Source: Bispira polyomma (Eukaryota). From it: 64,000 nucleotides of DNA. The position numbers and the translations under genes are program-made. Shown piece by piece: positions 13,190 to 31,510 of the stretch (position 1 is its first letter; each line of letters opens with the position of its first letter). Below the pieces are notes generated by a model. It did no database searches, was not told the DNA's origin, and was given only the letters and a program-made list of their open reading frames with translations. The stretch spans positions 52,948,001-53,012,000 of the forward strand of contig OZ287752.1 of the NCBI GenBank assembly GCA_965649765.1, given 5' to 3'.

Positions 13190-15145
13190 TCTCATGTGTG
13201 AGGCTATGGCTTCCAAACAACGCTGAAAAGCTGCGGTTCTGTGTACCCACCCTAATGTTACACCAGGGTCCACATATTGACCTGCGGACATAACCCCTCT
13301 GGGTTACAAATTTTTTCAGTTTCCACGGTTGCAAAAACTCGAAGGAGGAGTAGGCATTTTTGTAAAAAATGTTCTTTCCTGTGAAATTAACAAAAAAACA
13401 GTTCTATTCGTCTTTTTAATCGATCACATGCAAAATTTCTAATGGTTATCACTCATTCCTGGTTTCTTATTTTTACTGACCACCCATCCCTTCTCTAGCT
13501 ACCTTTACTCAAGAGTTTTCCGAATTCCTTTGAGAACCTAAACCTTCTTCTATCTAAAGCTATCATCCTTGGTGATTTCAACATCAAGGTCGACATGGAA
13601 AACACCATAACAAAAGATTCCAACCTCCTCAACACTTTTGGTTTCTCACAGTTCATCTCAAGCTCAACTCACCTTCACAATCACATACTTGATCTGGTAA
13701 TTGCAAGACCAAAATCAAATCTGATCAGTTAATCATGGGTAGCTGATAGGATTTTGGATCATTTAGCAACCTTTGCCTATTTAAATTTGCCGGTACCTGC
13801 CTAACAAAAACTTTGTGTCATAAAATACAGAAACATCAGAAAAATCAATATTGATCAATTCAGAGATGACATCCTTGCATGAAATCTCATTAAACATCCA
13901 TGCAAAAACGCTGACAATTTCAGCCTACAATACAATAACAGCCTTTGTACCATCCTTGATAAACATGCTCCTTGGGTATCTAAAACCTTTACCCAACAAA
14001 CCCCCATGAATGGACCAATGCCGCCATCAAAGAGGCTAAGAGACGGAAACACCAACTCAAGCGTCAATGATGCATATCAAATCCTCTTTCGATAGAAGCT
14101 GTTACCGCAAAGCCACAAACTATTTCAACAGGCTAATATCTAGTGCTGAAATGAAGCACTTTGATTTCATCATCAGTGATAATCAATACAATTCCAAAAT
14201 TCTGCATAGAACATCCGAGAAAATTCTCCCCATAAATCACTGTCTTACATTTTTAGATGATAAATTTGGAAAAAAAATTCATTGATAAAATCAGCAACAT
14301 TTGTGACGGTTTTGTATAGATGTATCACTTCTGTCCTCGAATTCCAGGGTATAAGGTTTCCAACCTATTTCGTTTCAGTACACTGTCCAAGCAGGAAGTT
14401 CTCAAACTCATGAAATCCTCCCCTATAAAATCTTGTGAATTAGATTCTATCCCAGAGTTATTCTAAATCAATGCCTTGACATTCTGGTTACACCCATAAC
14501 TAACATATTATACTTTTTTCTTCAGGATGGTGTTTTTACCACCTGTAAAATGCAAATACAAATACAAGAATGCAAATGTAACTCCCTTGATAAAAAAACA
14601 AGGACTGGATAAGAACAAGCTCAAAAACTATCAACCGGTGTCAAACCTCAGCTTTGTCTCAAAAGTTATCGAGAAAGCGGTAGCACAATAAATTTCTGCC
14701 CACCTAAACATAATGATATCAATCTTGCACTGGACCTCAACAAAACAATGACTCTCACCCTTCTAGATCTTTTAGCAGCATTTGACACCATTGACCATAG
14801 CTTGCTCTGTGACACTCTAAAGCAGTGGTTTGAAATAAATAGCAGTGTCCTTAAATGGATCAGATCCTACCCTACTCTTAGAGCACAAAGAATTAAATTA
14901 GATGATCACCTATCCTCTTCCACAAACCTACCATATGGAATACCCCAGGGATCCGTCCTTGGGCCTCTACTTTTCACCCTTTTTTCACATACTCTCAGCA
15001 CTGTCATTAATGATCATAATATAAAACACCACATGTAAGCAGATGACACTCAAGTCTATCTCTCTCAACCCTCAAAATGCAAATAGAAATATTGACCTAT
15101 TGCAGACTGTCTGTCCGATGTCCAGGCGTGGATGAACTACTCCAT
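13190..15145 (+). mobile_element. Degraded L2-clade LINE ORF2 (APE plus RT)
   Basis: GGVG, GDFNI, TH..NHILDL, KN.QPVSNL, LLDL.AAFDTIDH, G.PQGSVLGPLLF, (Y)ADDTQ with many stops. Confidence 0.85.
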
Positions 15146-15289
15146 TCAAATCACATTTTTGATTTCCCTTAGATCTGACAGGAATTTCCATAACGCCCTT
15201 ATCAGCAAATTCTGGCACGTTCCTATAACAAGACAAATCAACATTGACATAAACATTATTACCAATGATACCTTCCTTGTCCTACAAGA

Positions 15290-15640
15290 TGATACATTCC
15301 CGGCCTAAGTAGGGGCCCCCTTTGTGAGATGATAGGCAATGCCTCGTTCTAAATTTGTTGATATACCGATTCAGTATCTGCCACGTCTTTGGCACTAGAG
15401 GGGCCCGCTCCTGCTGATAAATGGCTGTTAAGGTTAATGACAATAGAATCTGATACCTGACCTTTCTTCCCACGTTTCGTGGACAATGGCTTCTTCGTGG
15501 ATTTTTTGGCTGTGCTCTGTGTGGGCGTCTTCTTTGTCTCTCCTATTTTAACACACCCAAATATTAACAATATAAAACAAGTATATGTATAAAACAAGTA
15601 AATTAAAAACAATTCAAAACGTGTATGTATACAACATACC
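15290..15640 (-). mobile_element. Ngaro gag 5' fragment (Ngaro-5 family)
   Basis: TKKTPTQSTAKKSTKKPLSTKRGKKGQVSDSI is nearly identical to the gag at 50525. Confidence 0.8.
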
Positions 15641-15744
15641 ATATAGATCTCTTTTGTTCTACCCCTAGTAATGACACTGACCACCGCCTTGTTGTCACAT
15701 TTGTGTCATCTTCTTATTTTAACCTTCTTTTTTTGTCACTATTA

Positions 15745-16455
15745 GTGGAGTAGAAATTCCATCAAGCCCTTCAGCTGTGAATCTTGGGGTCACAATTGAT
15801 GAGGAGAACTAAACCATGAAGCAGGATATCAACAAACTTTTCAAAGTTTGCTTCAGTCGAATATCTATCTATAGAATTAGACATGTTTAACTAAAGATGC
15901 CACAAAAACTATTGTGCATGCCCTTGTAATTTCAAAATTAGACAATGCCAATTTCTTGCTCAATAGGGTACAAGAAAGACTTCTGGACAAACTACAGCAT
16001 GTTCAGAATGCAAAAGCCGGGCTTGTGACAAATACAAAAACAATTGACCATATCACTCCAGTTTTGAAAAGGCTGCACTGGTTGTTATTACGTCAAAGGA
16101 TTAAATATAATAATTTGCTTCTGATATTTAAAGACTTGAAAGACCCTTATTTTACAAGCTCATATCTGGCAGACATGATTTTGTTCTACAGGCCAACACG
16201 ATCCCTGCATTCACAAACAGAAGAAAGACTTGTACACAAATCACATTCCAAGTATGGCAATAGAGCATTGTAGACCCAAATTTGTGGAATTGACTGCCTG
16301 TTTCTCTATAAGTCTGCAAAACTGTCAATGTTTTTTAAATCAAAATTAAAAACATATTTGTTTAAAGATTTACTGAATAAATTTGTTTAGTTGATCGTGA
16401 AGCGCTTTAAACAGCATTGGCTGGTTAGGCGCTATATAAAAACCTTATGTTATGC
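15745..16455 (+). mobile_element. L2 LINE 3' end
   Basis: VHALVISKLD..LQHVQN..HITPVLKRLHWL; L2-type tail aagcgctt...ggcgctatataa. Confidence 0.85.
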
Positions 16456-18346
16456 TGTATTCCTGGTCATAAAGGGACCCTATGCACTCCCTTGACTGGC
16501 TTTTACTAAAGGATTAATTATCGTGTTATGTTTTTGTTCTTGTGGATACATATTTATGTGAGAAGTATAATTCGTGGCAGATTGATGATTTTGCTGCTTT
16601 GATGTACAAAGAGGTTTTTATTGACATATAAGGGAATCTATGCTTTATAAGGTGTATCAATTTGGGGTAAGTAATTAGCAAGGTGCCTTCCCCAATACAT
16701 TTAGCTGAGAATATATTATAAGCCTACATTTCAGGAAATTGAAATCCCCCACGATTTAAAGCATTTGCTTCCAGTACATCAGTAATTATTGCTTTATTAT
16801 TAGTGTTTTAATTCACCACTTAGTCAGCATGGTAGGAGGGGGCGGTGGTAACTAAATTTTTGCCCAATTTGTTTATTCCAAGCCATATTTGTGGGATTAA
16901 TGCCTCGGAAGTCATTATCGCTAGTGTAGAAGAGTATAATAAACTGTATTAATTTCATTTCACCACTTTAAATAACTCGTTTTGGGGGATTTTGTATATT
17001 CAACCACTAAGCAAAGAAGCATCACATATTTTCCATGTACCGAAACAGGAATTCCAAGTTTGACATCCTCTATTATCAACCAAACAAAATAATTTTGAAT
17101 TAAAGTTCAAATAAAAATGTCTATCTTACAGCAATCTCGATGTGGAAATAGTATTAGAAATTTTCAACAATATATCAATGCTATACTATTAAGAAGTGCT
17201 ATTCTAAAAAGTATATAAACACATATAGTTAAACAAAGAAGTCAATGAGTCAATGGTGTACATGATTGAAACACCTTGGAATTCTTTAATATGACGATAA
17301 TACACATGAACAGTTGTACAGGCTTAATGTGCTTACGATTGCTAGTATCCGGAGAAGACCTGCTGACCTTACTAAAGCAGTCCCTGATTCTACTGCCAGC
17401 ATATCTCACTACAGGGGGAACCATGATTTTGTGCTGCTTTCTTCTCACCACGAGTAATATGACTGTGGCAATATATGTCAGTACATAAGGATTAAAATAT
17501 CTTCGATTTAGCAAGACTGGGTACTAGGCTAGCTGTTACCCTGTAATGGGGCTGTTCAACTTAGCCGATCGATCGAGGTAGAAAAAACTGCGTCACGCAA
17601 TTATAATCATGAAGACTCCCAAGTGGAACGATAAGTAGGGGGAGGGGGCTCTCAATAGATCCTAATAATCAGCTCGATTTGACCTCCCGATGGACAAATG
17701 GCTGCTCCGACCTCCCCGATCCGGGGCGATAAGTCATTAGTACTCCTTAGAATCATTAAGGTAACTCAGAGAGGCCGCCTGATCCACTCACCTATATAAT
17801 GGCTTCAATGCGTCTGCAAGTGATGGGTTTTTACATTTGTAAAGAAGAATAGACGTGTTAAGAAGAGACACAGAGAATACATGTCAAGGGAAAGTTGTCA
17901 CACAAGGAAGATCATACATCGATTCTGGGTGCAGTTCCTAGGTGAGTGTAGGGTGACCTTGAGGTAAGTAATAGGTCAAGTATGAACACTATTCTTGTTT
18001 GGAGAAATTTTATTATATACAGGTTAGTTCTATGTACAGGAGGTAAAAGAGTAGTTTAAAATTTAACTGGTAAAATTTTAAAATATACCCGTAACGTGAC
18101 TAGCATGTAAAGAAGGATGCGGGTAGGACTAGCCTATGTCACATGTACAGAAACACTATACTAAACCTCTATAACTAGCACTAATATAAACTATGATTAG
18201 GACTAGCCTAACCAACATGTACAAAACTATATGTAAATTCTATCAGCAAATCCCTGTCATGTCAACTGGGAATAGTAGAGTGGCTTTCGCCACATCAGGT
18301 AGAGAAGGTATTAACTTACCAGCTCGTGAAACCACTGGCTAATTCG

Positions 18347-18452
18347 GAACCCGGATCCTACGGCACCTAATCGCCTAGCAGTGAAGGTCCCTGGTAGCCC
18401 ACACCAGGGGGTAGATGCAGCGGGCGACACAGCACCACACGGATCCGGGTTC
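18347..18452 (-). ncRNA. Conserved structured motif in the Ngaro-1 A2-B2 spacer (function unknown)
   Basis: 12-bp closing stem gaacccggatcc/ggatccgggttc, GTGTGG, inner hairpin, core TGCTAGGCGATTAGGTGCC; homologs at 54098, 12384 and 12618. Confidence 0.6.
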
Positions 18453-18675
18453 AAGCCAACGACAGTGATAAGGAAATTATATAAGTAGTACTTTGCAATA
18501 GCAAAATAAAGTAGCGTTAATGGAGGTAATAGGGGAAGGAAGGTGGGAATTTAAAAAAAATTTAATGTTTACTGTTGCACACTTCAATCCAATATGGTGG
18601 AATAAGCAGGGGAGCAAATAAGTAAAATAAGGGGGGACCCCTAATTGGTAACCACAAAGGAAAAGAAGACCAGGG

Positions 18676-19356
18676 TTGACTTTACCAAGACCAATAGTGG
18701 TGCACTTTCTAACAAGAAAGGGTAAACAGCTGGTCCTACAACATACCAAGAACCTGAAAGGAACAAGTATCAGTGTTGCTGAACAGCTACCACCATTGAT
18801 AAAAGAGCAACGCTTAGCGCAGGTTCCAAAATTACAAGACTTACGTAAGCAGTTTCCAGATAAGAAGCGAGATCGAGTGAAGTTGGTGTCCAACAAACTA
18901 CTCCACAACAACCACTTAATTGATGGTGAGTTTGAAAAAAACCAATTACCAATCACAGAAGACACATCAAACACATACGACCTTGACGACCTTGTACATT
19001 TAGACACCATTGAATATGAGGATAGTTTCTTTCAAGGCCATGCTATCCAGATCCATTCTACTCTTGATGCTTGCTTAGCCAGAGACGCAGTTTATCAGAA
19101 GCCGGCAGCGGGTAATACAGACCATATGATGTACGTTTATCGCTTCAGAAATGACTCGGGAGGAAAAACAGAAGGATATTCAGATGACAACGAAGTTTGT
19201 GGTAGTAAGGAAATCAGAAAAGCTCTTGATCGTAGTGGACTTGAAAATGTATTTGTCTGTGTCACACGTGTGCATAATGGACCCAATATAGGATTTAAAC
19301 GATTTGACTTGATACGTGAGGCTGCAGAGACTGTAATTGCCAAGCTTTCAATGTGA
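18676..19356 (+). CDS. LINE ORF1 C-terminal part: L1/Tnp22-like segment fused to an IMPACT/YigZ (UPF0029) domain
   Basis: PRPIVVHF..LKGTSISVAEQLP then SFFQGHA..DHMMYVYRF..GYSDDNE..LENVFVCVTRVHNGPNIGFKRFDLI. Confidence 0.75.
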   Translation: MTLPRPIVVHFLTRKGKQLVLQHTKNLKGTSISVAEQLPPLIKEQRLAQVPKLQDLRKQFPDKKRDRVKLVSNKLLHNNHLIDGEFEKNQLPITEDTSNTYDLDDLVHLDTIEYEDSFFQGHAIQIHSTLDACLARDAVYQKPAAGNTDHMMYVYRFRNDSGGKTEGYSDDNEVCGSKEIRKALDRSGLENVFVCVTRVHNGPNIGFKRFDLIREAAETVIAKLSM

Positions 19357-19504
19357 TGATGTTTTGGAAGCACTTCTCAGCTTTATGTAAGACTCACTTT
19401 GGTTAAATTGATTATTGATTCAACATTAGTTTTCTCAATCACAAAGTAATATATTAAATTAGTATTAGTTTAGTATAATTTACATTACTTCACATTTCCA
19501 ACAG

Positions 19505-20105
19505 GTTTAATATTCAATCTGGTTAAAATTTGTAACTGATTAAATATTAGATTTCTCGTTGACAAAGTGATATATCAAATCGGATTAGTATTAGTTTTAA
19601 ATTTGTAATTAATTCATGTTTGGCCATCATGGACTGAATTTCCACTAATCCCTTCAAAAATGAAGCTATTCAGATACCAAGTTTAATATTCAATCTGGTT
19701 AAAATTTGTAACTGATTAAATATTAGATTTCTCGTTGACAAAGTGATATATCAAATCGGATTAGTATTAGTTTTAAATTTGTAATTAATTCATGTTTGGC
19801 CATCATGGACTGAATTTCCACTAATCGCTTCAGAAATGAAGCTATTCAGATATGAACCTATCATTTTGGTGTTATATTAGTACTCCTGTGATGGATTAGT
19901 TAATGAATTATCCTATTATTTGGTTATGTATTTATCTGTGAACTTAATTTATATAAAAACTGTAATTTGCTATACTGCAATTTATGGTGGCTCAGCTAAG
20001 TAAAATTTATTATTTGGTTATGTATTTATCTGTGAACTTAATTTATAAAAAAAACTGTAATTGGCTACATTGCAATTGATGGTGGCTCAGCTAAGTAAAA
20101 TTTAT
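19505..20105. repeat. Two tandem duplications (176-bp and ~94-bp units) in the LINE inter-ORF spacer
   Basis: 19505-19680 matches 19681-19852; 19914-20007 matches 20008-20105. Confidence 0.85.
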
Positions 20106-20149
20106 GATTCATATAATTAAACTCAATTTTTCTAAATTAGTTAGTCCTG

Positions 20150-20187
<38 letters not shown>

Positions 20188-20464
20188 AGTAACTCATGAT
20201 AGATACTGATCAATGTTGTTACATAAACACTCCTGAGGGGGTCAGTTAGTTAATGGGTAACTTAATTAAATATTTTTCTATTATTTTGTTATTTGTATAT
20301 ATTGATGAACTCTATTTACAAAGTATTGGATTTCCAAGAGCATTGATGGATATAAAACGCAAGAGTAGAAGTGATTCAGATCATTGTATTTTTGTGTATT
20401 TGCAAAGGTTAGTTGATGATTATAACTGTAGCATTTCCATCTTCTTTAGAAGCTATCATCCACC

Positions 20465-23400
20465 ATGATAGATTCAGTTTACTACAGGGCAGCAAAAGGA
20501 CACGATGCACTAAATTTTTGTGACAAATATTATTTAATATTGTCACATATAAAAATTCATAGAAATGTCAATATTAAGTTTCTGTTATATACTATTGTTT
20601 ATTTGATACTTAAGTGTGGTGATGTTCAACCAAATCCTGGTCCTTCATCAGGTATTGGCTCTACATTTTTCAAAATGTGTCATGTAAATGTCAGAAGTTT
20701 ATGCTCTAATAATTTCAGTAAGGTTGACATAATAAGAACAAAATTATCCATATAGGAAGGATATGATATCATATGTGTTGGGGAAACTTGGTTGGATTCT
20801 TCAATATTGGACAGTGATATTAGCTTGGAGGGATATTGTATATTTCGCAGGGACCGTAATAGGCATGGCGGAGGAGTAGCTATGTACATTTCAGATCACT
20901 TAGGTTTTCAACACGTAACCGACACTGACACTTTTGATACTGAAACATTAATCATAGAATTAGTAATAAATGGTAAAAAAGTCTTTGTTTTGTGCTGTTA
21001 TAGACCACCTGGCTTTTTTGCTGAGCAAGTTGACGAATATTTAGTAAAATTCCAATCAATCTTAGACTCACTTTACATTAAAAAATATGATGCCATCCTC
21101 ATATTTGGAGATTTTAATGATTGTTGTATTGACTGGAATGACGAACATCCAGCAAGTGAACTGAAATCTAAATTTAGAAATCTGATTTCACATAACAATT
21201 TGATTCAGATTATAAGTGAACCAACACATGTTACTCCCACATCAGCTTATCTGTTAGACCTAATAATTACTGATTCTCCAAGGTTGATAATGGACCAAGG
21301 TATTGACGAGCCAATTGGTGATCCTTAGTATGGTATATTGTAATGTAACTTGTACCAATACTAAAGATAGAACCTACACTAGAAATGTATGGCATTATGA
21401 CAAGGGGAATTATGAAAGTTTCAGGACTGAATTAGGATGTATGCCTTGGCATGTTATGGATAACTTCGAAATTAGTGAATGGGCTGAACTTTGGACTAAT
21501 GAATTTTTAAGTATAGCAAAAAAAAATATTCCGTTTAGACAGGTAAAAATTAAACCAAATGACAAATACTACATAACATCTGAGATCAAAAGGATGTTAC
21601 AAAAAAAAAATAGAATGTGGAAAATGTGGCATAGAACAAAAAACTACAATTATTATGAACGCTTTAGTGTGTTAAGGAAGGAAGTGAAATTTGCAATAAA
21701 AAATTCAAAACATTACTTTGATAATAAAAACATAGAAAAATTGAATAGTCCCCAGTGTTCAACTAAAGATTACTGGCATCTATTAAAGACAATTTATGGC
21801 AATAAGCATAAACCTAGTATACCAAGTATCATAGATGGTGATAATATAATATCAGTGACAAAACAGAAAATGGACTTGTTTAATCAATATTTCCGTTTAA
21901 AAGCTCAACTTCCTGACAACAGTAACCTACCACAGCTTCCCAAAATATTTGAAGTACCAAAGTACTGTTTATCTTCAATTAACACAAATGAAGAAGAGAT
22001 AGAAAAGATTATTAGTTCTTTGAATGTAAAAAAAGCTAATGGTCCAGATAATATCAGTAATAAACTCTTAAAAGAAGCCTCCTCAAGTATATCCAGTTCC
22101 CTATGTTGTTTATTCAATTCTTCTCTGTCAAAGGGGACAGTACCTCAATGTTGGAAAATGGCTAATGTCACACCTGTATTCAAAGGAAAGGGTAGTAAGC
22201 AGGAAACAAAAAATTATCGCCCTATCTCATTGATATCAAATGTAGGAAAATTAATGGAACGTATTGTGTTTAAACATGTGTATAAATACTGTTTAGAAAA
22301 CAAAATTTTAACATGGAGAAATTTGGGTTATAAACCGAATGACTCCACAGTTAATCAACTATTAGCTATTACCCATAAAATCTATCAGGCCTTAGAAAAG
22401 GGTGAAGATTATTGCTTTATATCATTAGATGCAACCGCTGCATTTGACCGAGTATGGCATGCAGGGATGATTTATAAACTGCAAAAGATTGGTATTACTG
22501 GGCCCCTTTTAGAATGGTTTATTGATTATTTAAAGGATAGAAAACAGAGAGTGGTCATTGGAGGACAAAATTCTGAATATGTCAGTATAACAAGTGGAGT
22601 TCCACAAGGCTCTATACTGGGTCCATTGCTATTTCTAATCTACTTTAATGATATGGTAGATGACATAAAAACTGAGAGCTTTCTTTATGCAGATGACACC
22701 TCCCTGTGTGAAGCTATATCAGACAATCAGAGTTGTTTTGAAAAGTTAAATCAGGATTTAAAAATAATAGAAAATTGGGGTAAGCATTGGCTTGTAAAGT
22801 TTAATCCCACTAAAACAAAATATATTATTTTTTCAAAAAGATTAAATCAGCCTCATTATCCAAATTTATATTTTGGAGATGAAACAATTCAGTGTGTAAA
22901 TACCCTAACACATTTAGGGATAACATTTAATTCAAAACTGACATGGAATAATCAAATAGAAAAGATCCTAGACCGAGCATACAAATCACTATCACAATTA
23001 AAAAGAGTTTCATTCCAGTTACCACGTTTAGCAAAAAGGCAAATTTATATAAGTTTTGTGCGTCCGATCCTAGAATATGGTGCAGAACTGTTTGACAACT
23101 GTACCGAAGAACAAAGTAAATTGTTGGAAAAGATTCAGCGTGATTTTTGCTTAACAATAACTGGTGCATATAAAAAAACAAGTCATAATTCTCTGTTGTC
23201 TGAGTGTGGCTTTCAACCACTAAAACAAAGACGTAAATTAAAAAAGCTTCACCTTATGTATAAGCTACAAAATGGCCTTGTGCCGGAATATCTCAAATAT
23301 GTCCCCCTGTTGTGTCTGTTACATCAAATTATAAATTAAGATATGGTAAGAAAATAAAGCCAATAAAAACTAAAAAGAATTACTTTCATACATCATTTCT

Positions 23401-23860
23401 TCCGTCCACTATAAGAGAATGGAACCTCCTTAATCCAAGTGTACAAGCTGCATTGTCAATAGAAACATTCAAATCAAAATTGAAAGCAAAACATAAATTT
23501 TTCAAAGTGTATCTATGGCACTACAGTAAAGTCGCTGTCCATCATAGTAGGATCAGAATGGGTTTGAGTGCTTTAAATCAACACAGAAAATTGTATAATT
23601 TCATTGATTCGGGGGTATGCTCTTATTGTGGCGCAATTAAGGAGGATGCCAAACATTTCTTTTTGACATGTCCGTCCTTTGCTGCTCTGAGGTTGGAAAT
23701 GCTACAGAAAGTAAACATAGAAATACCTAAAATGAAAATTAACTTTAATGCAAATAAACTACTTCAAATAATTATAAATGGCACCGGTAGTTTTGATGTA
23801 GATAAAAAATTATTTGAATGTGTGCACTCATATATAGGAAATTCCAAAAGGTTCAGTTAA
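20465..23860 (+). pseudogene. CR1 ORF2: 2A-like peptide, APE, RT, C-terminal zinc finger; stop at 20753, frameshifts near 21325 and 23315
   Basis: NVRSL, ETWL, GGGV, YRPP, GDFND, GVPQGSILGP, YADD, C..C....E...HF...C. Confidence 0.9.
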
Positions 23861-24342
23861 TTGTAAATTGTATATCTGTATCATTGATAAATGTACGATG
23901 TATTGTAATAACGATGTTATGTGTAGCCTATATTTATTATTGTTATAATGCAGTTTGTAATTGATTTGTTAATTTTGGACAAGAGCCTCTAGTGGCCTCA
24001 CGGCTGTGGGCAATTGTCATAAAATAAATAATGTTTAAATAAAAAAAAAAAAACCACAAAGGGGATAGGGAGAGGAAAGGAGAGTATACCTATGCTAATT
24101 AAGGTAGGAATAAAATTAGGAGAAAGGGGTTTTAGGAACTGAACTATCAGACCCCTGTAGGGTCGTGATGTTCACAGTTCCTAGGTGAGTGTAGGGTGAC
24201 CTTGAGGTAAGTAATAGGTCAAGTATGAACACTATTCTTGTTTGGAGAAATTTTATTATATACAGGTTAGTTCTATGTACAGGAGGTAAAAGAGTAGTTT
24301 AAAATTTAACTGGTAAAATTTTAAAATATACCCAAACCCAAG

Positions 24343-25319
24343 CTAAGGGGGAGAGGGGATGATGGAAGCGAAAGTAAGTGGAACTACAGCAGCCTGAGAG
24401 GAAGAATGCTGGAGATAGGCCCAGATGGCAGAACTACGCCACAGGCCGTGGGACATTATATGCTGTAGGGAAACATTGTTGTTAAATGCCAGGGATGCCC
24501 CCGACCTACGAAAAGTGTGGAAGCCATGGTAACTATGGTCTATCCCTATGTGCTGCAACACAGTTCTTAATGCAGTTCTAATATGGGAGTCAATGACTGG
24601 TAAGTAAGGGGGGAAAGAAGCTACAAAAAGTGGATGAGTGGGGGAAAGTTCCCTAGACTGAATAAGATGAGTAAGGGCCAGAACAGGACAAAGTGATTTA
24701 TCTTTTAGGACAGGAAGTTGTACTACGTGTGTATCAGTTCTGTTCTGCATGTTTTTGGCCCACTTGAGTATTAGATGAGCCCCAGGGTGGCCAAAAATAA
24801 TGTCCTGTCTTAACAGGTGCCTGGTAGGGTCAAATTTGCTTCTTGAGTGGGGGGCAATGTTTGACATCCTTAAAAATCCAAAGAATGCTACAAGAAATAT
24901 GGCCCTGTATAATGTAGGGTCGTTTAGAATAGAGCAAGTTCTTGATATGTTCTGAAGTAATTGGATGTCAAAGATTCCCTTTTTGTGTGGTTTAAAATCA
25001 GATGAAAGTGCCACGCTTCTGAGAAACAGGGACACCGAGTTGTGTGTTAACACCTGAGTGTTTAAGTTCTACTTAGAAAACATAAACTTTAGAGCAGCCA
25101 CGTAGTTGTTGACCACTCGAGGAGAAATGTTGTTTTGGGTGAGGTATTCTAGGAATGCCAGAATAGAGTGGACTGAGACCTGTTGAAGGCCAGAGTAATG
25201 TAAAAACGCTAAATAAGTCTTGAACTGTGAGTTGTATGCACTGGTAGTTGATGGCCTGAGAGCTGAATCCAGTCGCTGTACAGCTGCCAGTACCAGGGGT
25301 ATAGTAGATGGTGCTGCAC
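24343..25319 (-). CDS. Ngaro-1 tyrosine recombinase (one in-frame stop near 25070)
   Basis: GFLRMSN, CPV, HTFRRSGA, GLWRS, WAYL catalytic motifs; frame extends to a splice acceptor at 25320. Confidence 0.9.
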
Positions 25320-27947
25320 CTGTAAGTATATGACATAATTTAAATTAAAGAAGTCCACCGGAATATGTTTCCAGTGATACTTGTTCAGTCCTTTCATCAT
25401 GCCTGTGTTGGGAGGATTATCAGAATAAATGCGTGATAAAGCGTCAGCCTCGACATTGTTCTTGCCCCTAATGTGTTTGATATTTAAAGTTATGTCGTAA
25501 GTGGATGCTATTAGCCATATGTTTCTAATGCATGTGGCAAGAAAAGCGTCTTTGGTCTTACTAGTGTCAACGACTAACACCACAGCCAGATTGTCACACC
25601 AAACAGTGACTCTCTGGTGGGCCCAGTCCCTACACATTAGCTTCAGAGCTATAATAATGTTTAACATTTCGAGTTGAGTGATTGCTAAGGCTCTATTATA
25701 TATGTTATGTATTGGGGTGGCGTATACTTCCTTATTCCAAATGCCGCCAAAGCCCGTCAGGCACGCATCTAGGTGGAATTCTTGCATATGTTTAATGTCC
25801 TTAGGTGCAATATATGTAATGCCATTGTACAGAGGGAGAAAAGATATGAACCAAGCAATATCTTGCTTTATGTTGTGTGTGATTTTAAATCTCTTAACCT
25901 GTGGGTTATCTCTAAAGACAGCAAGAAGTCTATTTACAAATATCCTGGCAGGACGAACACATTTGTGGATGTAAAGAAGTTTGCCTAACATTGATTGGTA
26001 GTTAGTTCTTGAGAGCCAGGATTTTTCCGTAATTGTGTGAAGTTCTTTGTATATCTGGTTGATTTTTCCTTGGTTAATACTAATAGTTCCCTCCTTAATG
26101 TTAATATCTATGCCTAAAAAAGTTGTAAAGGTATTAGGAGGAATAGACTTATCGTTATTAATGGGTAAACCAAGCTTCAGAAGTATGTCGTGAAGGAGGT
26201 TATAACCTTTGTTTGCCCTGTCTTTAGTACAGACACCGGCGTAATCATCAATGTAACAGAATAGAGTATAACCTTGTGAATTCATGTAATCAGCTATAAT
26301 GTCTGAACAACGCTGAAACGCCGCACTGCCGTGGGCCCAGCCGAACGCCACGGCAGCGTTGACGTAGGAACTATCACCCCAGTTAATGCCTAGTTTGACT
26401 GCGTCAGCAGGAGCAACTCTGAGATTCCTAAACGCGCGGGAAACGTCTGTCTTAAATATAACTGGTTCCCTAGTGTTCTTTATAGCCTCAGTGATGTGGT
26501 CTACGGAAGGAAATTTAAGAGCAAATTTTGTTTTGTCAAACGTGTCTCTGTGTATCTGACTGTTAACTGAGAGGTCCTGAGGAAATGACAGATTAAGGAT
26601 GATCCTGCGTTTATCAATGTCTTTAGGCCTAGTTAGCAGTGGTGAAGCATGGAAGTGTGTGTCTCTGATTTTAGGAACTGGGCCCAATATGGCACCCTTA
26701 GACTTTTCCTTTTCAAGATATTTGTTCACCTCCTGAGGGTATTGTAACGCAGAGTGGTGAATTTTTCCATTGTTGTTATGTAGTAATTGTGGGTTTTCTA
26801 GTGAGAGAGGAAAACCGAACTTAAGGTATTGCAACAGAATCTTATCAAGATGCCCCTTTAGAAGGTCTTCCCAAGCCTTACTATTGAGATCATAACTAAG
26901 AGGAATTCTGGCCTCCCTGTAATTGGGAACACCTGTATCTCTGATTATACTGGCTATGTTTAACATGTCCTTAACAGTTGTAATGTTAATAGGTTCCCTA
27001 TCCGGGCCAACAAATTCAAAGTCTGTTCTTGATAATTTGATAAAACCTATGTCTTTGGTGTTATCACAAATGTCAATTGCTTTGCTTTTGTTAGAGTAGT
27101 CATGACTGTTGTTATTGTCAGTTAAACTCATAAAGTATTCATTGTTATGGTCGACCGACCAAACAGCCTGTTTGTGAGAAGAACGAGGCGACGTGATATT
27201 TGCATTGTCTTTGCTAGCAGTGGCGTCCGACATGGGTACATTATTGCTGTCTCCAGTGGAATCGCCACTATTAATAATGCCATCAATCAAATTTTCAACG
27301 TGCTGTGTATAATCACAGCCATACATGGCCTTACACTCCAGGTCTCTGTTATAATAATAATGTACGACTTTAGCATCTTGCTTTTGGTCTAAAGTATACT
27401 GATTATAAGCCCAATATGATTCGTCAATGTAAATAGTCATTTCTGTGACGGATTTAATTTCCAAGTAAGAATCAGGAACATGTATACACGGACTAAGATA
27501 ATATGAACCGTCAGCCGCATTAATGTGTTGATAACAGAAACCTGAAGCCATAGGCATATTATGCACATTTAAGTAAACCACATTGTCTACACTATGAATG
27601 ACATCACTTAGCCAATTACAAGTCGAAATGGTAGCTGAGTATGCTATACTATTAAGACCTGCATGGTTATTAGTCTCATTGTCTTTGTAGGTATCATTGT
27701 AGTACATGGCCACTTCATTACAGTTCTGAATATTTAACTCATTATGACCCAAATGTTGCACTTTTGTGTCATTATGTTCTATTACATTACAGTCAATAAT
27801 GTCCTCATCCCTTGGCTTAACTTTTTGGTCCACCTGAATACTAGCTAATTTTCTACTTTTATTTTTAGAAATATTACTTTCTATATCGGCCATTACAGAT
27901 TTATTGACTTTCTGCTGGTTACAAACTGAATTACTACAATAACACAA
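25209..27947 (-). CDS. Ngaro-1 Pol (N-terminal extension, RT, RNase H)
   Basis: RRIILNLS, KTDVSRAFR, FG..GSAAFQR, YIDD; RNase H DAC, LEM, DN, ADALSR. Confidence 0.9.
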   Translation of the reverse strand: MCYCSNSVCNQQKVNKSVMADIESNISKNKSRKLASIQVDQKVKPRDEDIIDCNVIEHNDTKVQHLGHNELNIQNCNEVAMYYNDTYKDNETNNHAGLNSIAYSATISTCNWLSDVIHSVDNVVYLNVHNMPMASGFCYQHINAADGSYYLSPCIHVPDSYLEIKSVTEMTIYIDESYWAYNQYTLDQKQDAKVVHYYYNRDLECKAMYGCDYTQHVENLIDGIINSGDSTGDSNNVPMSDATASKDNANITSPRSSHKQAVWSVDHNNEYFMSLTDNNNSHDYSNKSKAIDICDNTKDIGFIKLSRTDFEFVGPDREPINITTVKDMLNIASIIRDTGVPNYREARIPLSYDLNSKAWEDLLKGHLDKILLQYLKFGFPLSLENPQLLHNNNGKIHHSALQYPQEVNKYLEKEKSKGAILGPVPKIRDTHFHASPLLTRPKDIDKRRIILNLSFPQDLSVNSQIHRDTFDKTKFALKFPSVDHITEAIKNTREPVIFKTDVSRAFRNLRVAPADAVKLGINWGDSSYVNAAVAFGWAHGSAAFQRCSDIIADYMNSQGYTLFCYIDDYAGVCTKDRANKGYNLLHDILLKLGLPINNDKSIPPNTFTTFLGIDINIKEGTISINQGKINQIYKELHTITEKSWLSRTNYQSMLGKLLYIHKCVRPARIFVNRLLAVFRDNPQVKRFKITHNIKQDIAWFISFLPLYNGITYIAPKDIKHMQEFHLDACLTGFGGIWNKEVYATPIHNIYNRALAITQLEMLNIIIALKLMCRDWAHQRVTVWCDNLAVVLVVDTSKTKDAFLATCIRNIWLIASTYDITLNIKHIRGKNNVEADALSRIYSDNPPNTGMMKGLNKYHWKHIPVDFFNLNYVIYLQVQHHLLYPWYWQLYSDWIQLSGHQLPVHTTHSSRLI

Positions 27948-28019
27948 GTTACTATCTACACTATTGTTACAAGATCCGCACTTTCTAATTGTTCATTTGG
28001 TTAGTCGTTGACAACACCC

Positions 28020-29198
28020 CTATATCTTATTAGGATGAGATTGGTTGGATTTTGATGCAATGCTCTTCTCACACTTTGCAGCCGAGTGAGAGACGTCCGT
28101 ATTGAGCACTCTATGACAGTACGAGCATATGTGCCTGTACTGTCCGTGGTCACCTTCCTGGTGGCACTTGCCTAGGTTGTAGTACTTGCATAATAATCTC
28201 CCCTTCTGTGAATATCCGGAACCGCCTGTGACTGCCCCGGTGTTAGTCTGCTGACTGTTAAGCACTGTCAGCTGAGATACACTCATGCGGGTTAGGGCCC
28301 ATTGTGTGGCGTCCCTCCAATGAAGGCACCTCTCCTCAGCCTCCTGCATATTAGCAGCCCACGCAGCCCTAACTGCAGGCCATGGGAGAGAAGCCGCGTC
28401 TTTAAGTGAGTGTATAACTTGGTCTAACATCTGTCTTAATAATGTCTGGTCCTGGACTTGCGACACATTGAAGAGTTGGCCGGCTGCCCACTGGGGCAGG
28501 GTTAGGTCATCGAATGTCGGCCTTTTCTTACCGGCTACTCCGCTGCAACCCTCGTTTGGCCATCTCAGTTGAGGATCGGCATTAGCAATGTCAGTGGTAT
28601 TGTAACGACCCGATTTTTGTCTCAAAAGGGGCTTACCTTGCGTCAACTCAGTTCTCAGCTGGGCGTCGTAGCTAGCCAGGCGGTGGTTAACGGCTGCGGT
28701 CACTTCTGGCAGTGATCTCAACACGTCCACTTTGGGTATGATTCCATCCCTCTGGTAATCATGATGTGACACGACTCTAGGTAAACCGTGTGCTTCCTGA
28801 GGGTAAGTAGAGTCATGAGTGTGTTTCCTGACAGGTAAAGCGAATTCCCCCGTCTGTCTCTGGTCATCAAGGGTATCGTTTCTAGAAGCAGATGGAGATC
28901 CGAGAGGGGTGGAACTATATGATCCCCGCGATTCAACTCTGTCCAGCCGTTTATGGATCTGCGAATTAGCCGTTTTCAGCTTCTGTAACATTGCCATGAC
29001 ATCACCGAGTCCGGCTTGATTAGGGACAACTGGCTCCGGTTGGGCGATTGCTGTATCAGCGAGCAGCCCTTGTAAATTGAGAGCTAAGGGGTCCGACACA
29101 TTAGCAGAAGTACCTGTCTTTTTAGTAGGTTTCCTTGTAGAGGCACGTTTTTTTCCCTTCATTGGTACACTAAGAGGTGTCTTAGTTGACTTGCCCAT
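28020..29198 (-). CDS. Ngaro-1 Gag, 392 aa
   Basis: Intact ORF; C-terminal CKYYN.GKC..H..YRHICSYC..H...C zinc finger. Confidence 0.85.
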   Translation of the reverse strand: MGKSTKTPLSVPMKGKKRASTRKPTKKTGTSANVSDPLALNLQGLLADTAIAQPEPVVPNQAGLGDVMAMLQKLKTANSQIHKRLDRVESRGSYSSTPLGSPSASRNDTLDDQRQTGEFALPVRKHTHDSTYPQEAHGLPRVVSHHDYQRDGIIPKVDVLRSLPEVTAAVNHRLASYDAQLRTELTQGKPLLRQKSGRYNTTDIANADPQLRWPNEGCSGVAGKKRPTFDDLTLPQWAAGQLFNVSQVQDQTLLRQMLDQVIHSLKDAASLPWPAVRAAWAANMQEAEERCLHWRDATQWALTRMSVSQLTVLNSQQTNTGAVTGGSGYSQKGRLLCKYYNLGKCHQEGDHGQYRHICSYCHRVLNTDVSHSAAKCEKSIASKSNQSHPNKI

Positions 29199-29859
29199 GT
29201 TTATAACTAAAATATTTGCAGTAAAAGAACACTATAACACCTTGTATTTCAAATTTAAAAAAAATTTAATGTTTACTGTTGCACACTTCAATCCAATATG
29301 GTGGAATAAGCAGGGGAGCAAATAAGTAAAATAAGGGGGGACCCCTAATTGGTAACCACAAAGGGGATAGAGAGAGGAAAGGAGAGTATACCTATGCTAA
29401 TTAAGGTAGGAATAAAATTAGGAGAAAGGGGTTTTAGGAACTGAACTATCAGACCCCTGTAGGGTCGTGATGTTCAAAGCCATGGCTTAAGCAACGTGAG
29501 GAACATGGGCATTACTCTGCACTTCTCCCTGCCTGGAACTACAAAATGGGGAGTCATACAGTAACTTCCTCAGGAAATCACCTGATGCATTCCAAGAGAT
29601 GGAGAGGAGGGTGGGCATAGGAGGTCCACCATAGCCAAGTTGGTCCCCAGGTGTGGCTGGCAATCATTGATGAATAACAGAAGGAATTCTTGTCTTGCCC
29701 GACAACTCCACAGGGCTGGAAGAAGTGAAGGGGTTTTAATTTTGTTTTTAATTGTGTGTACGTGAGATGATTTATTTTGAGGGGCCAGTTTGCTTCTTGT
29801 AATGAGGGTATTTTTTCATTTAACAAGCAGCTCAGATAATTTTTTTCAAACGTTTGGGT

Positions 29860-31094: not shown

Positions 31095-31244
31095 ACCCTA
31101 ATTTTCCAGGAACAATTGATATGCTAGTTTTGCTAAAAAAAGAAATAAACCCCTCACTACCATATACCATATACACACAGGCCCCATATTTAACTAATCT
31201 CTGTCAGACACATCAAAACACAAGCAACTGCATTAATAAAAATA

Positions 31245-31510
31245 ACCTTTGGGTTCAAACTTTTTAAAATATTGTTTGAACCTTTTGGGGACCAGGGTTT
31301 AAACCATTTAACAATTCTTTAAAACTTGTGGGGTATTAGGGTTCAAGCCCTTTAACAATTCTTTAAAATTTGTGGGGACCCATGGTTCAAGCCATTTAGC
31401 AATTCTTTAAAACTTGTGGGAACCATGGTTCAAGCCATTTAGCATTTTTTTTAAATTTGTGGGGGCTTAGGGTTCAAGCCCTTTAAATGTTCCTTAAAAC
31501 TTGTGTGTTT
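31245..31510. repeat. ~40-bp minisatellite between the two stem-loop arms
   Basis: gggttcaagccctttaacaattctttaaaatttgtgggga, about 6 copies. Confidence 0.8.

Follow-up and report, generated by a model that had tools for sequence, protein, structure and literature searches.

An IMPACT/YigZ ancient domain at the end of a LINE ORF1 protein in Bispira polyomma

Does a domain of cellular IMPACT and YigZ proteins belong to a retrotransposon protein, and if so, what might it do there? The question is raised by a LINE insertion within a 64,000-nucleotide stretch of the Bispira polyomma genome (contig OZ287752.1, positions 52,948,001 to 53,012,000; here called the window), in which an initial reading of the sequence had proposed that an ORF1 is fused to a UPF0029 domain. 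The function of the ancient domain is itself described as "elusive" or "unknown" in the available parts of two accounts (PMC4503747, PMC7140605).

The 234-aa open frame at 18652-19356 (+) matches Pfam PF01205 (UPF0029) with its residues 124-229 (nt ~19021-19338), spanning model positions 2-107 of 107 and scoring 50.8 bits where the cut-off is 27 (E 1.9e-13), and its top sequence match in the PDB is yeast Yih1 (6bqi, E 7.7e-4). The last 125 residues, modelled with AlphaFold from a 22-sequence alignment (pLDDT 94.9), have the N-terminal fold of YigZ and superimpose at an rmsd of about 2 Å over 113-118 residues on TT1547 (2cve; Z 17.6, rmsd 1.9, 113 aligned) and on 1vi7, which we take to be E. 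coli YigZ (Z 16.6, rmsd 2.1, 118 aligned), with Yih1 itself (6bqi) at Z 11.3 (rmsd 4.0, 117 aligned). All other chains among 48,161 remained at or below Z 6.5; these include RNA-processing fold neighbours (YicC, exosome, RNase PH, ribosomal proteins), whose Z of 5-6.5 lies within the background range, and a viral fold search returned nothing at E up to 0.001. The Pfam search and structure prediction that had been named as checks of the original prediction thus both bear it out (PF01205 at E 1.9e-13, fold matches at Z 16.6-17.6), and the UPF0029 motifs that it quoted are present as written, including the DDNE quartet at 19183-19194. The window copy retains the conserved Ser, His, Asp, Asp, Glu and Arg, with Asn replacing the Gly of DDGE. 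This is a captured IMPACT/YigZ ancient domain, and it belongs to the ORF1 of the element, the features of which are collected in Table 1.

Table 1. Features of the LINE insertion and of its host element in the window.
Feature	Positions	Strand	Evidence
Tyrosine-recombinase retrotransposon hosting the LINE	17932..29479	-	Direct repeats; integrase and RNase-H-like Pfam matches
Left target-site duplication (TSD), 11 bp, AACCACAAAGG	18650..18660	+	
5'-truncated LINE insertion, CR1-type ORF2, L1-type ORF1 with IMPACT domain	18661..24051	+	TSD pair, empty site, nine copies
C-terminal part of ORF1p RRM, residues 191-231 of 421	18661..18783	+	AlphaFold, Foldseek to 2yko/2w7a, full-copy alignment
ORF1p CTD, L1 type	18784..18930	+	AlphaFold, Foldseek
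IMPACT/YigZ ancient domain (UPF0029), end of ORF1	19003..19356	+	Pfam, PDB sequence match, AlphaFold and fold comparison
Conserved domain residues	Ser 19024, His 19123, Asp-Asp-Asn-Glu 19183-19194, Arg 19267, Arg 19300	+	Alignment
AT-rich inter-ORF spacer, 175-bp and ~95-bp tandem duplications	19357..20449	+	Common to family copies
Spacer-internal poly-A	~20154-20185	+	
ORF2, AP endonuclease and reverse transcriptase, CR1-type, broken	20450..23860	+	
2A-like motif GDVQPNPGP near ORF2 N-terminus, putative	20618..20644	+	Sequence
3' UTR and poly-A tail	23861..24051	+	
Right TSD, AACCACAAAGG, behind poly-A tail	24052..24062	+	
Empty target site, other copy of the host element's direct repeat	29354..29364	+	

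The insertion bears the marks of an APE-type LINE, namely an ORF2 with APE and RT, a poly-A tail, a TSD and 5' truncation. Its limits are set at 18661-24051 by the TSD pair together with the uninterrupted site in the other direct-repeat copy; the 11-mer occurs three times in the whole window, at these sites only, and the joint 18649->24052 also appears in two public runs (contig data). That one TSD pair brackets both ORF1 and ORF2, as had been proposed, is therefore confirmed. While the fusion stands, the first account had overlooked that this copy is truncated within the RRM, with ORF1 residues 1-190 of 421 missing, and that, compared with the intact copy L034, its ORF2 has a stop and two small deletions; the window copy is dead. 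The host of the insertion is a tyrosine-recombinase retrotransposon, presumably Ngaro/DIRS-like as judged from its split direct repeats (17932-18090 = 24175-24333; 18548-18660 + 24052-24177 = 29252-29479). It encodes an RT/RNase H-like frame of 927 codons and an integrase interrupted by one stop, and is young, since its repeats are 98-100% identical. Older LINE fragments lie upstream at 14613-16273 (+; RT match, E 7.8e-10), and a tandem array of ~44-bp units at 31227-31505 is flanked by inverted repeats of 34-43 bp (29853/31059 and 31076/31591).

Copies elsewhere in the genome show that the two ORFs travel together. All nine best genomic matches (L031-L039) are colinear with the window element at 98-99% through ORF1, spacer, ORF2 and poly-A, so that ORF1 lies upstream of ORF2 in every copy, in agreement with what had been predicted. 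Both frames are intact in L032 and L034 (434 and 1139 codons), several copies have TSD candidates and flanks of their own, and the family is young. The spacer measures 1.1-1.4 kb in these copies and has a short gap in two of the nine; spacer portions are absent in L033 and L037, the 175-bp unit differs in copy number among family members, and the internal poly-A is present in most. Compared with other families, the spacer showed only poly-A similarity among the matches listed, and spacers in related families reach several kb. A nesting of a separate CR1 insertion behind an L1 ORF1, which the long spacer with its internal poly-A might suggest and of which a one-off case exists at locus L152, has next to no chance of explaining the window family, given the single TSD with its empty-site control, the nine colinear copies with their own flanks, and a second subfamily (L106-L110, L144) that has the same pairing with both ORFs diverged; as an artefact it is ruled out for this family by the colinear copies and the TSD with empty site. 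The architecture and the unity of the element are, in our judgement, practically certain.

Counted from its first Met, the full ORF1p has 421 aa. Its AlphaFold model (pLDDT 82.8) consists of a disordered N-terminus, a helix (67-135), an RRM (136-231), a CTD (232-280), a linker and the ancient domain (305-420), and the top Foldseek entries were Yih1 (E 1.1e-6), human L1 ORF1p (2yko, E 2.1e-6), TT1547 and 1vi7. As modelled, then, ORF1p is an L1-type (type II) coiled coil-RRM-CTD protein to which an IMPACT domain is added. None of four full ORF1s matched Pfam Transposase_22 at E up to 1, so the L1 likeness is structural, and Transposase_22 neighbours in the ESM Atlas score only 0.79-0.81. Pfam scans of the full ORF1s found no RWD domain (PF05773), nor any domain above cut-off besides UPF0029 in 21 long or atypical database homologues. 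Predicted as three copies, residues 96-421 scored 0.63 against 0.10 for the best of three controls, possibly through memory of L1 ORF1p. Of same-chain pairs with a solved structure, 21 of 30 attain the mark set for this score (7 of 16 in animals), whereas none of 23 single chains does. The runs share at least 51% of their contacts at a partner pLDDT of at least 69, and the confident contacts lie almost all in the coiled coil, with the ancient domain in none.

The fusion extends far beyond the window family. Candidate matches in the genome number 754 for the window ORF1 fragment and 427 for PF01205, with 150 scored in each case. One hundred loci were fetched; behind their IMPACT ORF1s the ORF2 is L1/Tx1-type in 76, CR1-type in 18 and weak or missing in 6, proportions that are not a genome-wide ratio because the loci were selected by score and open-frame length. 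Sixty-seven long ORF1s form 22 clusters at 80% identity, and all 22 families have the domain at full length, 23-42% identical to that of the window family, with a median spacer of about 1.1-1.3 kb in 91 loci. Among 172 non-cellular database matches, which are sequences without genomic context, 166 have the RRM-CTD core and 147 the core plus the full domain. Two ESM Atlas clusters of "hypothetical protein" (57 and 242 members) match at 0.93-0.95 and carry PF01205 in 96% and 78%, respectively; phylum is known for 14 and 45 of their members, Mollusca being commonest. One database protein (P0144) has three or more UPF0029 stretches, and in others (P0146, P0149, P0158, P0145, P0186, P0170, P0098) the domain is extended by long low-complexity tails.

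The domain itself likely derives from eukaryotic IMPACT. The host retains an IMPACT gene (L141, G000:C4:58679581-58684930) whose RWD and ancient domain are spread over six or more exons bounded by canonical splice sites; its ancient domain is split over four exons, whereas the element domains are intronless. In a tree of 64 rows and 118 columns, comprising 36 element domains and 16 eukaryotic IMPACTs and rooted with 12 bacterial YigZ-type proteins, the element domains group in a single clade (96/97), which falls with eukaryotic IMPACT and apart from bacterial YigZ (94/83). The phylogeny against host IMPACT that had been called for thus places the elements on the eukaryotic side with the host gene not their specific sister, the 118 columns resolving little else. 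A bacterial origin is not favoured, both by the tree and by the C-terminal end of the element domains, which is of the eukaryotic type (G.RF..I) and not the bacterial GGL..AY; the 100% columns of the bacterial set in VVVSRW.GG are circular evidence, since that set was found by motif patterns. The simplest reading, which we infer from these observations, is a single old capture, in which an ancestral L1/Tx1 lineage would have taken up the 3' half of an IMPACT mRNA, eukaryotic and already spliced.

How the resulting ORF1 came to precede the ORF2 seen in the window is a separate matter. This ORF2 we take to be CR1-type from its RT motifs and its 2A-like motif, L2, Crack or Daphne being possible assignments; against human L1 ORF2p, an L1-type reference (L049) scores 313 bits and the window family 68. 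An RT tree of 29 rows, from which four of the 22 families are omitted for having no RT stretch of 200 aa, separates 12 CR1-type from 17 L1-type sequences (100/100), with the window family among the former and next to CR1s whose ORF1 ends in a NADAR domain (94/85). The ORF1 core, taken without its tail, nests instead among the L1-linked IMPACT ORF1s (100/94), as does the domain (100/99), and a grouping of the window ORF1 core with other CR1 ORF1s is rejected (AU test, p 0.0096). Because the RT sides with CR1-type elements while both the ORF1 core and the domain are nested among L1-linked ones, the whole ORF1 was likely moved from an L1/Tx1 element to a CR1-type ORF2. It is mainly L1/Tx1 families that carry the fusion, and the CR1-type element in the window appears to have received its ORF1 by transfer.

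Such a transfer may have come about when a CR1-type ORF2 came to lie behind an L1-type IMPACT ORF1, likely by insertion into its long spacer, the chimera then founding a lineage with at least two subfamilies in this genome. That it persisted and diverged is indicated by the second subfamily, which is about 58-63% identical to the window family in ORF1 and about 63-67% in the RT. A recent snapshot of a plausible route is offered by L152 (G000:C5:43309914-43319786, -), where a 5'-truncated NADAR-family CR1, with a 13-bp duplication, lies in the spacer of an L1 IMPACT element; a CR1 ORF2 thus stands behind an L1 ORF1, which is itself split by an insertion of ~290 bp with inverted ends. L152 had been considered as a second CR1 family with an IMPACT ORF1, a reading that was rejected because the CR1 insertion into the L1 spacer is a single event there. 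The transfer would be of a known sort, in that the available part of PMC4120745 reports that ORF1 has evolved reticulately within CR1/L2. Taken as a whole, this history of capture and transfer seems to us highly probable. A 2A-like motif at such an N-terminal position has been reported for CR1s from molluscs and for clades related to CR1, most 2A-bearing elements having no ORF1 (PMC3708506, in part); the element at 18661-24051, with GDVQPNPGP, has an ORF1 as well, unlike most of these, and two NADAR-type CR1s (L150, L155) read DIETNPGP.

A parallel for the ancient domain exists in related elements. NADAR stands at the end of ORF1 in all five related CR1 loci with a readable tail (L149, L150, L155, L158, L159; E 1e-37 to 1e-41). 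NADAR has 2,147 candidates in the genome, 150 of them scored, and in 20 loci fetched (L241-L260) the same ORF1 core was invariably present, followed by an L1-type ORF2 in 18, by a weak CR1-type match in one and by none in one. An IMPACT domain was found in none of these 20 NADAR ORF1s, and the cores of the two types form separate clades (100/100). A sister ORF1 lineage therefore holds NADAR in the same C-terminal slot, on L1-type and CR1-type elements alike, and this alternative occupant narrows the candidate functions for the IMPACT domain.

That the domain is maintained is apparent from comparisons between families, in which synonymous differences approach saturation (pS 0.73-0.91) at a domain dN of 0.22-0.57 in all 11 pairs. 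Mean identity over the 22 families is the same for the domain and the RRM, at 0.38, and lower for the coiled coil, at 0.24. Within families, dN/dS spans 0.40-1.16 in eight pairs (0.65 for the domain, pooled), near-neutral values that are uninformative because the pairs mostly record post-insertion decay and include frameshifted tails; the proposed dN/dS check thus yielded constraint between families and nothing within them. Six residues are kept almost throughout 169 element-type domains: H345 (97%), D365 (97%), D366 (96%), E368 (94%), R393 (95%) and R404 (98%). S312 is present in 77%, with Asn in its place in 14%. Other positions are relaxed: the Lys before Ser, 100% K in eukaryotic IMPACT, is G in 66% of elements, the Asn after His is kept in 50%, and the WYGG loop has loosened, all of which could reflect a changed or lost substrate. 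The third position of DDGE is the most variable of the motif (G 78%, R 9%; DDGE 117, DDRE 13 and DDNE 5 of the 169), and the DDNE that had been remarked upon is accordingly a family-level variant and no sign of decay.

What such a domain does for a LINE is best approached through the residues that it keeps. A Ser-His-Glu catalytic triad has been proposed for YigZ. The invariant features of Yih1 and YigZ lie on one face, for which a conserved ligand has been suggested (PMC4503747, in part). We lean, by a modest degree, towards the proposal that the domain equips the element's own RNA-protein particle with a pocket for ligand binding or hydrolysis. ORF1p is predicted to trimerise through its coiled coil, which would place three ancient domains per trimer on the RNA. 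On the pocket proposal, a cluster of Ser, His, Asp-Asp-x-Glu and Arg might bind or remove a small nucleotide-like group in the course of retrotransposition, for example at an RNA or cDNA end that is damaged or marked by the host, in parallel to NADAR in the same slot of the sister lineage. The preference follows from the conservation centred on a polar cluster shared with bacteria, from the non-basic character of the domain and from the presence of an enzyme-family domain, NADAR, in the sister slot; it thus builds on conservation and on analogy with an unrelated domain. A further step, which we consider rather doubtful, is that such LINEs keep a dedicated counter-defence slot at the end of ORF1p, filled by NADAR in one lineage and by IMPACT in another, and that the ancient domain is an enzyme removing a chemical mark, host-added or damage-derived, from the RNA or cDNA of the element; if true, this would reveal an undescribed anti-transposon mark, and a domain conserved all the way from bacteria to humans would gain its first biochemical function.

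Two functions suggested at the outset fare less well. Nucleic-acid binding through a general basic surface is not favoured at a net charge of about 0 (median -1 in 22 genome domains, -4 in the window family). Modulation of translational stress is unlikely to follow the classic route of GCN2 antagonism, competition for Gcn1, since such competition requires the RWD domain (PMC7140605 and PMC13094546, in part), which is absent from the ORF1s scanned.

The main rival to a pocket function is that of a tether linking ORF1p to ribosomes or translation factors, which would favour cis-assembly on the RNA that encodes it or aid ORF2 translation across the long spacer. Yih1/IMPACT does associate with ribosomes (PMC7140605, PMC13094546, both in part), the spacers are long, the ORF2 has a 2A-like motif, and the domain fold weakly resembles ribosomal proteins and EF-G (Z about 5-6). 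We nevertheless regard a tether as unlikely: published work places binding to ribosome, actin and Gcn1 at least partly on the linker/RWD side that the element is missing, NADAR-type elements without the domain also have spacers of roughly 0.5-1.6 kb, and conservation falls on the polar motif cluster and not on a broad surface.

Still less probable is an effect on the GCN2 stress response exerted in trans, with the domain binding the RWD of either host protein, IMPACT or GCN2. Its appeal lies in the folding of the Yih1 ancient domain onto its own RWD, which masks Gcn1 binding (PMC13094546, in part), and in a eukaryotic IMPACT donor of which an intact gene is kept in the host. Yet closing host IMPACT would raise GCN2 activity, not lower it, the ORF1s scanned have no RWD, and the best-kept residues recur in bacterial YigZ, a protein without an RWD partner. 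We would give even less weight to a domain that is simply carried along, or that caps the protein structurally and otherwise has no function. In its favour, many type II ORF1s do without such a tail (PMC4120745, in part), as L157 and P0004 exemplify here, several positions invariant in cells are relaxed, and dN/dS within families is near neutral; but a passenger would hardly be expected at full length in 22 of 22 families that are only 23-42% identical, conserved to the degree of the RRM while synonymous sites are saturated, and with six polar residues kept at 94-98%.

Term searches for UPF0029 in PMC4120745, PMC11203168, PMC10294476 and PMC5203782 (main text and two of three supplementary files) gave no occurrence, and no literature linking a UPF0029, YigZ or IMPACT domain to a LINE was found, Repbase and subscription journals lying outside the scope of the search; databases tag these proteins with PF01205 and with no retroelement link. 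A selected IMPACT accessory domain on a LINE ORF1p is thus apparently undescribed. The favoured pocket aside, an RWD-less domain under selection in many retroelement families must do something by itself, and retrotransposition with and without the pocket residues would offer a simple read-out for the universal IMPACT/YigZ domain. The locus also documents what is probably a whole-ORF1 transfer between two LINE superfamilies, for which L152 shows a plausible route.

Among known systems, human L1 ORF1p (2yko, 2ldy, 2w7a) has the same coiled coil-RRM-CTD order and fold, with a coiled-coil trimer predicted for the element protein. As in LINEs with a type II ORF1p generally, ORF1 lies upstream of an APE-RT ORF2; the protein differs from that class in its additional C-terminal IMPACT domain of 116 aa and in lacking a Pfam Transposase_22 match. 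Type II ORF1p also occurs in CR1 and L2 subgroups, and PHD is the sole addition to type II ORF1s in Table 1 of PMC4120745, which was available in part. The esterase ORF1p of CR1/L2 (ZfL2-1) sets a precedent for an enzymatically active accessory domain, although it is without RRM-CTD and its SGNH esterase, of unrelated fold, binds lipids (PMC3905857, in part). Closer in kind are the Tx1 LINEs of Crassostrea gigas, whose ORF1 contains NADAR, with a suggested role in processing RNA intermediates, and for which the available part of PMC12477816 makes no mention of IMPACT: here too an ancient, enzyme-like cellular domain is carried on a LINE ORF1p, the two domains being unrelated and, as tails, mutually exclusive in our sample. 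With IMPACT/Yih1 (6bqi) and YigZ/TT1547 (1vi7, 2cve) the element domains share the fold and the same His, Asp-Asp-x-Glu and Arg residues, while differing from them in the relaxed Lys before Ser, Asn after His and WYGG loop and, in the window family, in DDNE. Unlike eukaryotic IMPACT/Yih1, the element protein has neither RWD nor introns, is fused to a retroelement protein and is encoded at hundreds of loci.
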